Origin: Escherichia coli | GTDB taxonomy: Bacteria; Pseudomonadota; Gammaproteobacteria; Enterobacterales; Enterobacteriaceae | Strand: one strand, 5' to 3' | Assembly (NCBI RefSeq): GCF_003334765.1 | Contig: NZ_QOWT01000004.1 | DNA: 64,000 nt | In this document: positions 37,378 to 38,743 of the stretch, piece by piece | How the letters are laid out: each line of letters opens with the position of its first letter | Numbering within the stretch: the first letter of the stretch is position 1 | Made by a program: the position numbers and the translations under genes | The notes under the pieces: model-generated | Told to the model about the DNA's origin: nothing | Databases searched by the model: none | What the model saw: only the letters and a program-made list of their open reading frames with translations

Positions 37378-37623
37378 TTATTCGCTGACAAACCAGTCAT
37401 CGGCGCTTTCCCACGTTTCCTGGAGAATTTCACTAATGCGCTGTTTATCTTCTTTTGTCGCGCCAATAACCGATAAATTATTCGCTGCGGCATAACGTAC
37501 CGATACGTGGCCTTCATTATCAGGAAACGCATACTGAATACGGCGGGAAAGTTCGCCAGCCAGGGCGTCAATAGCCCCAGCTGGCAATGGAGAAGTTTTC
37601 GCTATGGTGACTTCAATTCGCAT
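37378..37623 (-). CDS. dinI: DNA damage-inducible protein DinI
   Basis: 81-aa ORF (MRIEVTIAKTSPLPAGAIDALAGELSRRIQYAF...); the track ORF is extended upstream by 44 codons across the LexA box, which is not credible. Confidence 0.9.
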   Translation of the reverse strand: MRIEVTIAKTSPLPAGAIDALAGELSRRIQYAFPDNEGHVSVRYAAANNLSVIGATKEDKQRISEILQETWESADDWFVSE

Positions 37624-37642
37624 AATAGCCCCCTGTTGAATA

Positions 37643-37662
37643 TACTGGTTATTTATACAGGT
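37643..37662 (-). promoter_or_regulatory. LexA (SOS) box in the dinI promoter
   Basis: Minus strand reads ACCTGTATAAATAACCAGTA (CTGT-N8-ACAG consensus class), about 20 bp upstream of the dinI start. Confidence 0.8.
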
Positions 37663-37696
37663 AAAATAACCTAATGACAACAGGAAGCTACGATTT

Positions 37697-38743
37697 TTAT
37701 TGTTTAACGGACCAGCGTACCGTTTCCCCGGCGAGGAATGGCACCAGCGTGTCATCAGTCAGTGCGATGCTTTCAGCAACCTGTTGCTCTTCACGTACCA
37801 GTTCGATGAATGTGTCGTTGACCGGCAACCCATAGAACTGCGGGCCGTTTACAGAACAGAATGCTTCAAAGTGCTGCAAAGCATTCATTTCTTCAAAGAC
37901 GGTAGCGTAACTGCCCAGCGCGGTTGGGGCGTTGAAGCAGCCCGCGCAGCCGCAACTGCTCTCTTTGCGATGACGTGCATGTGGCGCAGAATCCGTACCG
38001 AGGAATACTCGATTAAAACCGCTGGCGACCAGTTCACGCAATGCCTGTTGGTGAATATTACGTTTGAGGATGGGTAGACAATACAGGTGCGGACGCACGC
38101 CTCCAACCAGCATATGGTTGCGGTTAAACATCAGATGCTGCGGAGTGATGGTGGCAGCCAGCCGTTCATTTCCGTCACGGACATAGTCGGCAGCATCTTT
38201 GGTGGTGATGTGCTCAAAAACGACTTTCAGCGCAGTCAGGCGCTGGCGCAGAGGTTCCATCACGCTTTCTATAAAGCGCGCTTCACGATCAAAAATGTCG
38301 ATATCTGCATGTGTCACTTCACCATGCACCAGTAGCGGCATACCGATTTTTTCCATGCGCTCAAGTACCGGCATGATTGCGTCAATTGACGTCACGCCGT
38401 GGCTGGAGTTAGTGGTTGCGTTTGCCGGGTAAAGTTTTGCAGCGGTGAACACGCCTTCGTTAAATCCGCGCTCCAGCTCATTAGGATCCAGCGAATCTGT
38501 TAAATAACAGGTCATCAATGGGGTGAAATCGTGCCCGGCAGGTACGGCGTCAAGAATACGCTGGCGATACGCCACGGCAGCCTCAACGGTGGTCACGGGC
38601 GGAGCCAGATTGGGCATTACGATAGCCCGTCCATAAATTTCGCTGGTATATGGCACGACAGTTTTTAACATGTCGCCATCGCGGAGGTGAAGGTGCCAGT
38701 CGTCTGGGCGGCGGATCTTTAATACCTGGGATGGTGCAGTCAT
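37697..38743 (-). CDS. pyrC: Dihydroorotase PyrC
   Basis: 348-aa ORF with metal-binding HxH near the N-terminus (DWHLHLRDG); length matches PyrC. Confidence 0.94.

Follow-up and report, generated by a model that had tools for sequence, protein, structure and literature searches.

The protection of the IS10 and IS50 transposase genes from external promoters was reportedly described by Davis, Simons and Kleckner in 1985, Krebs and Reznikoff in 1986, and Schulz and Reznikoff in 1991. In these elements the transposase gene is preceded, upstream of its start site, by a stretch complementary to its ribosome-binding site, such that transcripts arriving from outside fold and are translated poorly; the stretch is missing from transcripts begun at the gene's own promoter. 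A related arrangement is found in the leaders of pyrC and pyrD, where the formation of a hairpin sequestering the Shine-Dalgarno (SD) sequence depends on exactly where the transcript begins. In Yersinia, Pectobacterium and Brenneria, intrinsic terminators lie between the pyrC stop codon and the dinI promoter. The idea of insulation is also echoed in a preprint (bioRxiv 10.1101/2025.01.24.634351).

Here we describe a hairpin in the untranslated gap between pyrC and dinI of Escherichia coli that is predicted to bury the dinI SD in RNA reading through from pyrC. No earlier description of it was found in the literature searched, in which "pyrC-dinI" did not occur as a term. The arrangement resembles that of IS10 and IS50, with the differences that dinI belongs to the SOS genes of the chromosome and follows a housekeeping gene, rather than being part of a mobile element, that the hairpin loop holds the operator and the -10 hexamer, and that the dinI case is known in silico. 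As with the PyrC leader (RF02372), the transcript isoform would decide whether the ribosome-binding site is accessible. The PyrC leader relies on start-site switching by a few nucleotides at one promoter and senses CTP and GTP, whereas the dinI hairpin would distinguish two promoters about 1.1 kb apart and sense nothing. The terminators of Yersinia, Pectobacterium and Brenneria occupy the same place and would meet the same read-through problem, but by ending transcription and not by keeping the RNA from being translated, and E. coli lacks one.

The analysed window, a stretch of 64,000 nucleotides, is E. coli DNA. The coordinates given by the first-pass annotation for the dinI start, the end of pyrC, the 73-bp gap and the LexA box all hold, and are collected with the other features in Table 1. 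Both genes are annotated at this locus in 5426 of 5426 complete E. coli genomes, 3192 of which match positions 37615-37705 at 99% identity or more. DinI is a modulator of the RecA filament. A search of positions 37200-38900 with the Rfam 15 covariance models returned the PyrC leader at 38744-38793 as its sole match, and thus no curated RNA family in the pyrC-dinI gap.

Table 1. Features of the pyrC-dinI junction, in window positions.
Feature	Position	Strand	Sequence	Basis or remark
pyrC (dihydroorotase) CDS	37697..38743	minus		348 aa; ORF list and annotation in matching E. coli genomes
pyrC stop codon	37699-37697	minus	TAA
Untranslated pyrC-dinI gap	37624-37696			73 bp
Hairpin 5' arm (anti-SD)	37678..37691	minus	GUAGCUUCCUGUUG	Inverted repeat, RNA fold, duplex energy
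dinI -35 hexamer	37675..37680	minus	TTGTCA	By eye; TTGTAA or TTGTCA kept in the Enterobacteriaceae alignment
Inner 8-bp hairpin	37647..37671	minus	GGUUAUUU / AAAUAACC	Inverted repeat; minimum free energy (MFE) structure; caps the long stem in read-through RNA
LexA (SOS) box	37643..37662	minus	ACCTGTATAAATAACCAGTA	CTG-N10-CAG; conserved in orthologous loci; literature
dinI -10 hexamer	37652..37657	minus	TATAAA	Inside the LexA box; TGTATA.A columns invariant in the alignment
Predicted dinI transcription start site (TSS)	37645..37646	minus		6-7 nt past the -10, in the 3' half of the LexA box; inferred from hexamer spacing
Hairpin 3' arm	37625..37638	minus	CAACAGGGGGCUAU	Holds the dinI SD; ends 1 nt before the ATG
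dinI SD	37634..37629	minus	AGGGGG	Within the hairpin 3' arm
dinI CDS	37378..37623	minus		81 aa, MRIEVTIAKT...; ATG at 37623, stop at 37378
Intragenic dinI hairpin (+37..+71)	37547..37587	minus		Published RNA 3' end at +77, K-12 1121411 = window 37547 (PMC10687069, TRS supplement)
dinI intrinsic terminator	37343..37358	minus	GCCGGGUCGCCCCGGC + U run	Terminator scan; primary 3' end mapped at K-12 1121199

The LexA site of dinI is said to have been first found through LexA-box searching by Lewis et al. in 1994, and is reportedly among the sites listed by Fernandez de Henestrosa et al. in 2000. The box in the window, which reads TACTGGTTATTTATACAGGT on the plus strand, shows no difference from the known K-12 box; in E. 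coli K-12 and in the Salmonella and Klebsiella orthologues the same 20-mer is found at 19 bp from the ATG and covers both the -10 hexamer and the TSS. The operator is therefore a re-description of a known site and, taken by itself, an ordinary one in a known place. By our own count it agrees with the gammaproteobacterial LexA consensus TACTGTATATATATACAGTA at 15 of 20 positions. Allowing one mismatch, the loose pattern CTGT-N8-ACAG turns up 16 times in the window where 19.5 are expected, which does not set it apart from chance. For the stricter CTGTAT-N7-CAGTA the 64 kb contain a single instance, the dinI box, and 100 shuffles contain none. Synteny of pyrC and dinI is kept in 25 further Enterobacterales genomes, retrieved via PyrC and not via the LexA box; in all 25 a CTG-N10-CAG box precedes the dinI ATG by 19-23 nt. 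An extended LexA palindrome was considered for E. coli and rejected, the centre of the inverted repeat (37658) lying 5.5 nt from that of the box (37652.5).

The gap carries a canonical sigma-70 promoter for dinI, with a spacer of 17 nt by eye, and the LexA operator covers its -10 hexamer and predicted start site. A consensus promoter scanner missed this promoter, as it demands a T at the last -10 position. Strong LexA dependence of dinI in E. coli, Salmonella and Klebsiella is textbook SOS biology. In E. coli, 49-fold induction by AZT, 39-fold lexA dependence and a heterology index of 4.8 for the box have been published (PMC11228462). The Salmonella box lies at the E. coli distance of 19 bp from the ATG, and dinI is induced 22.8-fold by nalidixate (PMC8072944). 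For Klebsiella, one report combines LexA ChIP-qPCR with TSS mapping and places the box over the TSS (PMC10907235). That the operator and promoter are squeezed behind the pyrC stop codon, as the first-pass annotation had it, is thus correct and already established (PMC11228462, PMC8072944 and PMC10907235).

The same annotation held that pyrC read-through runs straight into the dinI promoter and operator. A terminator scan of the window found the dinI terminator and others outside the gap, and no terminator-like site (a G+C-rich hairpin followed by a U tract) within the gap. The supplements of two 3'-end studies, a Term-seq list and the TRS lists of PMC10687069, place no RNA 3' end within the gap and attribute none to the end of pyrC. 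The neighbouring entries are K-12 1121411, 77 nt into dinI, and K-12 1122683, at the end of yceB, with nothing between; going downstream from pyrC, the former is the first 3' end to have been mapped. These datasets include LB cultures, in which expression of pyrC is expected to be poor, so the absence of a pyrC 3' end is weak evidence. Neither co-transcripts of pyrC and dinI nor a measured E. coli dinI TSS came to light in the literature searched, and neither gene is listed in the SMRT-Cappable-seq supplement. The passages on dinI transcripts in the K. pneumoniae report mention species about 350 nt long or less, and none that is longer (PMC10907235). Because the gap holds no terminator-like site and no listed 3' end, read-through from pyrC into dinI is plausible.

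RNA reading through from pyrC is predicted to fold the gap into a long stem. The 5' arm starts 5 nt past the pyrC stop codon, shares 3 nt with the -35 hexamer and lies at about -46 to -33, counted from the TSS that the hexamers predict, a placement supported by the TSS mapping in the Klebsiella orthologue (PMC10907235). With the 3' arm it forms 14 pairs, of which two that are mismatches in the DNA become G-U in the sense RNA. The arm duplex has an energy of -21.7 kcal/mol, compared with -9.0 +/- 2.3 for shuffled upstream sequence, and falls in the 0.18% tail among all window positions of the same geometry. The SD is predicted to be unpaired with a probability of 0.001 when the RNA reads through from pyrC and of 0.43 when it starts at the dinI promoter, and the predicted energy needed to open the SD is 15.9 kcal/mol in the former and 4.9 in the latter. 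As the 5' arm lies upstream of the predicted dinI TSS, both arms would be present only in read-through RNA. In the two strands of E. coli the sense arms pair better than the antisense (-21.7 against -15.5 kcal/mol). Across species the comparison is mixed, with the antisense folding about equally well in many. This strand test looked for G-U pairs in the sense RNA that are A-C mismatches on the antisense strand and is not decisive; because the antisense is often as stable, a constraint acting at the RNA level on the sense strand is not proven.

We interpret the hairpin as a translational insulator of the kind found in IS10 and IS50, with a probability of roughly 0.55. In E. coli and its close relatives, where pyrC lacks its own terminator, polymerases would most likely cross the dinI promoter. 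RNA initiated at the dinI promoter would lack the 5' arm and leave the ribosome-binding site accessible; RNA arriving from pyrC would carry both arms, fold and bury it. DinI would then be made only from the LexA-controlled promoter, despite a housekeeping gene upstream that has no terminator. The pairing and its conservation were computed in silico, whereas the read-through and its translational effect are inferred.

Across 91 distinct orthologous pyrC-dinI gaps, complementarity to the SD is a recurrent feature. When about 240 windows of untranslated and coding sequence were ranked by how well they complement the pre-operator region, the 14-nt window holding the SD came first in 66 of these gaps. 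For each SD type, cognate arms also score better than swapped ones (z -5.8 and -4.2). Both the rank and the swap tests ignore phylogeny, and independent events are far fewer than sequences. When lineages were collapsed into 27 DinI clusters at 80% identity, the SD window ranked first in 15 of the 19 clusters with short gaps, the other four placing it within the top 6%, and in only one of the eight with long gaps. The arms change together between clades, as in the pairs CCCCCUG/CAGGGGG, UUGCCCCCG/CGGGGGCAA, UUGCCUCCGG/CCGGGGGCAA, GCCUUUGGGAUAAU/AUUAUCCCGGAGGC and UGCCUCUGC/GCGGAGGCA, and the position of the 5' arm relative to the -35 hexamer varies. In single-sequence MFE structures the G-run of the SD is paired with bases upstream of the LexA box in 38 of 41 Enterobacteriaceae. 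Complementarity is absent from LexA-boxed dinI homologues unlinked to pyrC (mean -7.3 against -19.5 kcal/mol), and it is weak in those species where pyrC is followed by a terminator-like hairpin with a U run. Our terminator caller is a rough one: its call for L185 is probably false, and two hairpins visible by eye, in L017 and L025, escaped it. This last contrast therefore rests mainly on gap length.

These patterns bear on whether the gap holds only the known promoter and operator, with the complementarity between the C-rich segment at -46 to -33 and the G-rich SD being incidental or non-functional and each side conserved separately. Such separate reasons could be translation for the SD and some promoter-upstream role for the C-run. 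The alignments lend this reading some weight. No significant covariation was detected in the fixed-register 14-pair stem in a MAFFT alignment of the 41 Enterobacteriaceae gaps: 73.2% of cells were paired against 72.6% in column shuffles, and 106 of 500 shuffles reached that value. The test does no better than shuffles because the 9-bp core of the stem is nearly invariant within the family and the outer stem is bulged. RNAalifold at default settings predicts no pairs for this alignment (an open chain); with RIBOSUM scoring it recovers the 9-bp core and the LexA-box hairpin, and with a weaker penalty for non-compatible sequences an 8-bp stem, so that the outcome depends on parameters. About 0.2% of random window positions also match the E. 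coli duplex energy, and the frequent stability of the antisense strand points the same way. Against it stand arms that differ in sequence and in position relative to the -35 in separate clades and still complement the SD, the top rank of the SD window in the majority of gaps, and the loss or weakening of complementarity where pyrC is not linked or is followed by a terminator-like hairpin. To our knowledge, a C-run just upstream of a -35 hexamer has no known promoter role, which also counts against it. We regard an incidental origin as unlikely.

The behaviour of the longer-gap clades could also be read as if one device had been swapped for another: in them pyrC is followed by a terminator-like hairpin, and the pairing with the SD is gone. 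The hairpin might then serve pyrC, as a weak terminator or a protector of its 3' end, with the SD used as the sole G-rich partner available in a crowded gap. Erwinia-like sequences fit this, having UUUU after the 3' arm (CGGAGGCUUUUAUG). In E. coli and most Enterobacteriaceae, however, the stem has no U tract (CUAUUAUG, CAAUUAUG), the terminator scan left the gap empty, and neither 3'-end supplement lists an end near the base of the hairpin at K-12 1121488, the first lying 77 nt into dinI. A role for pyrC is accordingly rather doubtful, and sequestration of the SD would follow physically from the fold even if it were true.

The 5' arm follows the pyrC stop codon at a distance of 0 to 26 nt where the gap is short and of over 50 nt where it is long. 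This spacing bears on translational coupling, in which ribosomes finishing at the pyrC stop would melt the 5' arm and make dinI translation proportional to that of pyrC. The close spacing in E. coli would suit this. The variability of the distance does not, nor does the G+C-rich core of the arm, which lies at least 10 nt past the stop in most species; 73 nt from stop to ATG is long for re-initiation, and there is no evident physiological reason to link DinI to pyrimidine synthesis. We consider coupling very improbable.

The first-pass annotation also took read-through to be a potential source of promoter occlusion or of SOS-independent dinI expression; a LexA roadblock that ends pyrC transcription belongs with these possibilities. 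The operator does lie in the path of read-through, and the gap would not halt polymerase by a terminator. Nonetheless, no 3' end is listed immediately upstream of the operator, and dinI is among the most strongly induced SOS genes, its 49-fold response indicating low basal expression (PMC11228462). Predicted burial of the SD opposes the making of protein from read-through RNA, so that SOS-independent expression, on the strength of the conserved fold, probably does not extend to the protein. Taken as a whole, this reading seems highly unlikely.

If the translational insulator is real, it would account for the absence of DinI leak from a tightly repressed SOS gene that lies only 73 bp past a metabolically regulated one and has no terminator in front of it, and would provide a chromosomal example of the IS10/IS50 logic. 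The hairpin also points to a genome-wide search for anti-SD segments just upstream of internal promoters. A fuller version is put forward tentatively, as a possibility that we do not favour: the pyrC-dinI junction may be a terminator-less boundary insulated post-transcriptionally, at which the anti-SD at the promoter edge silences the read-through RNA and this RNA ends at a translation-sensitive site 77 nt into dinI. On this version the promoter, operator and 5' end of dinI would double as the 3' untranslated region of pyrC, and promoter-embedded anti-SD segments may be a general and overlooked way of packing differently regulated tandem genes without terminators.

The hairpin within dinI was considered separately as a selected terminator for untranslated RNA, and was rejected as such: synonymous-codon shuffles gave a mean z of -0.5 over 80 orthologues, with -1.8 in E. 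coli. It is for the most part a by-product of the LPAGAIDALAGE coding sequence, and its part in an insulation mechanism is uncertain. The 5' arm has a more practical bearing. Fragments of the dinI promoter are in use as SOS reporters, and the presence or absence of positions 37678-37691 in the cloned fragment would, if the insulator reading is true, alter the sensitivity of the reporter to read-through from the vector.

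The interval 37300-38800, where pyrC and dinI are annotated, has a match in every one of the 5426 complete E. coli genomes, and in K-12 the order is solA-bssS-dinI-pyrC-yceB-grxB, on one strand throughout. The first-pass annotation had placed a LexA box and the dinI promoter in the gap behind the pyrC stop codon, and re-reading of the sequence showed all of its coordinates to be correct. The -10 hexamer falls inside the LexA box, so the expected transcription start lies in its 3' half. This promoter was missed by a consensus scanner because the scanner demands T at the final -10 position. 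Loose LexA patterns are not rarer than chance in the window, while CTGTAT-N7-CAGTA occurs once in the 64 kb, at dinI, and never in 100 shuffles. An 807-aa ORF resembling pgaA, with its ATG at 9690 (minus strand), is preceded at a distance of 35 nt by a perfect CTGT-N8-ACAG palindrome (CTGTATCTAATTACAG, 9725-9740), which is not known as a LexA site and is no more than the loose pattern would yield by chance.

Features of the pyrC-dinI region (window positions)
Feature	Position	Strand	Remarks
PyrC_leader RF02372	38744-38793	minus	Rfam, 68.7 bits; directly upstream of pyrC
pyrC	38743..37697	minus	stop TAA 37699-37697
pyrC-dinI gap	37624-37696		73 bp
dinI -35 TTGTCA	37680..37675	minus	by eye; 17-nt spacer to -10
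LexA box, 20-mer ACCTGTATAAATAACCAGTA	37643-37662		
dinI -10 TATAAA	37657..37652	minus	by eye; within LexA box
Predicted dinI TSS	~37645-37646		3' half of LexA box; from promoter position
dinI	37623..37378	minus	
dinI terminator	37358..37343	minus	nearest to gap in terminator scan

That a LexA operator covers the -10 and start site of dinI, with LexA-dependent induction documented in the literature, is established and already known. In a 2024 re-analysis of the SOS response, E. coli dinI showed 49-fold induction by AZT, 39-fold LexA-cleavage dependence and a heterology index of 4.8 (PMC11228462). In Salmonella, where nalidixate induces dinI 22.8-fold, 19 bp separate the box from the ATG (PMC8072944), as they do in the window (37642..37624). 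In a K. pneumoniae study (PMC10907235), the dinI start was mapped within the LexA box by dRNA-seq and primer extension, and LexA occupancy, measured by ChIP-qPCR, dropped after mitomycin C, so the site does have a counterpart in LexA binding data. The annotated operator is borne out by the published induction data and by conservation: a CTG-N10-CAG box precedes the dinI ATG by 19-23 nt in all 25 other Enterobacterales species with pyrC-dinI synteny, loci that were retrieved via PyrC, independently of the box. AZT induction that depends on LexA cleavage is also reported for pyrC and the rest of the de novo pyrimidine pathway, which has no LexA box (PMC11228462); the neighborhood of dinI does not explain this for pyrC because transcription proceeds from pyrC to dinI.

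A terminator scan of the gap detected no terminator-like site. Mapped 3' ends were checked in the supplements of two published studies, some of whose libraries came from LB cultures, in which pyrC is expected to be poorly expressed. In the Term-seq supplement (Adams et al. 2021) the sole pyrC-associated end is K-12 1122569 (window 38705, minus strand), about 38 nt into the pyrC ORF, and it appears in an apparently bicyclomycin-sensitive (Rho-dependent) list. The TRS supplement (PMC10687069) gives minus-strand termini at 1120649 (bssS), 1121199 (dinI terminator), 1121411 ('Internal dinI') and next at 1122683 (yceB), with none in the gap and none assigned to pyrC. Window coordinates equal K-12 coordinates minus 1,083,864, so that 1121411 corresponds to 37547. 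Transcripts of pyrC have to stop at some point, and beyond pyrC the maps show no 3' end until this one, 77 nt into dinI. The 3'-end maps are thus compatible with the read-through from pyrC proposed in the first-pass annotation, as is the lack of a terminator-like site in the gap, but they fall short of proof; a search of the literature and transcript-map supplements returned no direct pyrC-dinI co-transcript and no E. coli TSS dataset. The consequences envisaged there, namely promoter occlusion or leaky DinI expression, and likewise a LexA roadblock, seem very unlikely; no 3' ends were mapped just upstream of the operator.

Within the gap, 37626-37638 and 37678-37690 also form a 13-nt inverted repeat that folds in the sense RNA as a 14-bp stem (GUAGCUUCCUGUUG pairing with CAACAGGGGGCUAU), since the two mismatches in the DNA become G-U pairs. 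The dinI Shine-Dalgarno (SD) sequence AGGGGG (37634..37629) is part of the 3' arm, which stops one base short of the ATG. The 5' arm, at about -46 to -33 from the predicted start site, would therefore be absent from RNA begun at the dinI promoter. The duplex between the stop-to-operator and operator-to-ATG segments was computed at -21.7 kcal/mol, against -9.0 +/- 2.3 kcal/mol with a dinucleotide-shuffled upstream part, and belongs to the 0.18% tail among 42,614 same-geometry window positions. For a 236-nt read-through RNA, the predicted probability of an unpaired SD is 0.001 and opening of -15 to +4 costs 15.9 kcal/mol, compared with about 0.43 and 4.9 kcal/mol for RNA begun at 37644-37646. 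Rfam shows no family in the gap, the sole nearby match being the PyrC leader. With a 91-nt query, 2223 of 5426 E. coli genomes fall in the 95-99% identity band; the one 98.9%-identity match inspected, EC93, differs solely by a G-to-A change at 37692, one position beyond the 5' arm.

For comparison, 120 metagenomic loci were added using a search pattern limited to the LexA box plus the opening codons of dinI, and therefore blind to both arms; pyrC lies upstream in 98 of them. Genome and metagenomic loci together comprise 91 distinct gaps, in 66 of which the pre-operator region, compared with about 240 windows of 5' UTR and coding sequence, was most complementary to the 14-nt window over the SD. 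After collapse into 27 DinI clusters at 80% identity, the SD window ranked first in 15 of 19 clusters with short gaps (up to 83 nt) and within the top 6% in the other four, only one of eight clusters with longer gaps showing this. The clades with long gaps (Yersinia, Pectobacterium, Brenneria and relatives) have a terminator-like hairpin and U run immediately after pyrC; in silico, the SD-pairing hairpin is inversely related to such terminator-like hairpins. The Enterobacteriaceae arms are CCCCCUG/CAGGGGG, and other clades keep the complementarity with different sequences (UUGCCCCCG/CGGGGGCAA, UUGCCUCCGG/CCGGGGGCAA, GCCUUUGGGAUAAU/AUUAUCCCGGAGGC, GCUUCCG/CGGAGGC and UGCCUCUGC/GCGGAGGCA), the 5' arm lying before, on or after the -35 according to clade. 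Cognate arms paired better than swapped ones within both the GGGGG (n=46; -20.2 vs -18.7 kcal/mol, z -5.8) and GGAGG (n=10; -14.2 vs -10.7 kcal/mol, z -4.2) SD types, the swap statistics, like the ranks, ignoring shared ancestry. LexA-boxed dinI homologues elsewhere than downstream of pyrC reach only -5 to -11 kcal/mol (mean -7.3), whereas pyrC-linked short-gap loci average -19.5 kcal/mol; the anti-SD segment thus belongs to the pyrC context and is no general feature of dinI promoters.

The complementarity could be incidental, which is unlikely. Within Enterobacteriaceae the 9-bp core is nearly invariant (14 cells C-to-U, with a G-U pair retained), and a fixed-register 14-pair stem scored no better than column shuffles. 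RNAalifold predicted zero pairs by default and recovered the core stem and a LexA-box hairpin with RIBOSUM scoring. The SD G-run was paired with bases 5' of the operator in 38 of 41 single-sequence MFE structures, and in many species the antisense strand folds about equally stably. It is rather improbable that the structure serves pyrC, by weakly terminating its mRNA or protecting the mRNA's 3' end, since the E. coli stem lacks a U tract after it and no 3' ends map to its base; even then, burial of the SD would still result from the fold. Translational coupling of dinI to pyrC is hardly to be expected, given a variable and often long stop-to-arm distance.

Modeling indicates that a stable, SD-burying hairpin is possible in the read-through isoform only and recurs across lineages. 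Polymerases leaving pyrC would traverse the dinI promoter and make RNA that would not be translated for DinI, so that DinI synthesis would remain LexA-controlled even with no terminator. With decent comparative support, the extra hairpin is plausibly an example, and would be a new one, of a known kind of post-transcriptional insulation. The IS10 and IS50 transposase genes are shielded from external promoters by a segment upstream of their own start that pairs with the ribosome-binding site. This protection idea is echoed in a preprint (bioRxiv 10.1101/2025.01.24.634351). By geometry and in silico energetics the dinI hairpin would fall in the same class. A second parallel is the RF02372 match, the known pyrC leader hairpin, in which start-site choice controls SD access; there the transcript 5' end decides whether an SD hairpin forms, as is proposed for dinI. 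As a possible corollary, untranslated read-through RNA may end at dinI +77, six bases after a hairpin at +37..+71 (window 37547-37587, minus strand; -26.6 kcal/mol). This ending is only a lead because that hairpin is not conserved beyond protein-sequence constraint, synonymous-codon shuffles of 80 orthologues pointing to little selection beyond coding (mean z -0.5; E. coli -1.8).

The SD-pairing stem is also present in Klebsiella-type gaps (L122 type), as AGCCCCCUG with CAGGGGGC. According to the K. pneumoniae study, dinI mRNA is processed there to the sRNA DinR, an ftsZ repressor (PMC10907235); the DinR segment of the 3' UTR is Klebsiella-specific and absent from the window. In five of 5426 E. 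coli genomes, coverage of the 91-nt query is below 80%. The E. coli strain ST2747 (L203; NZ_CP007394.1, 2446-2537) lacks dinI, a deletion running from inside the LexA box to upstream of bssS and leaving the -35 and 5' arm beside pyrC. A metagenome contig (L119; OFRN01000230.1), whose end truncates dinI, retains the LexA box together with a 5' UTR of Enterobacteriaceae type (ACAGGGGGCAAUU), with unrelated DNA replacing the pyrC end and the C-rich arm; it may represent a natural rearrangement that removed the 5' arm.
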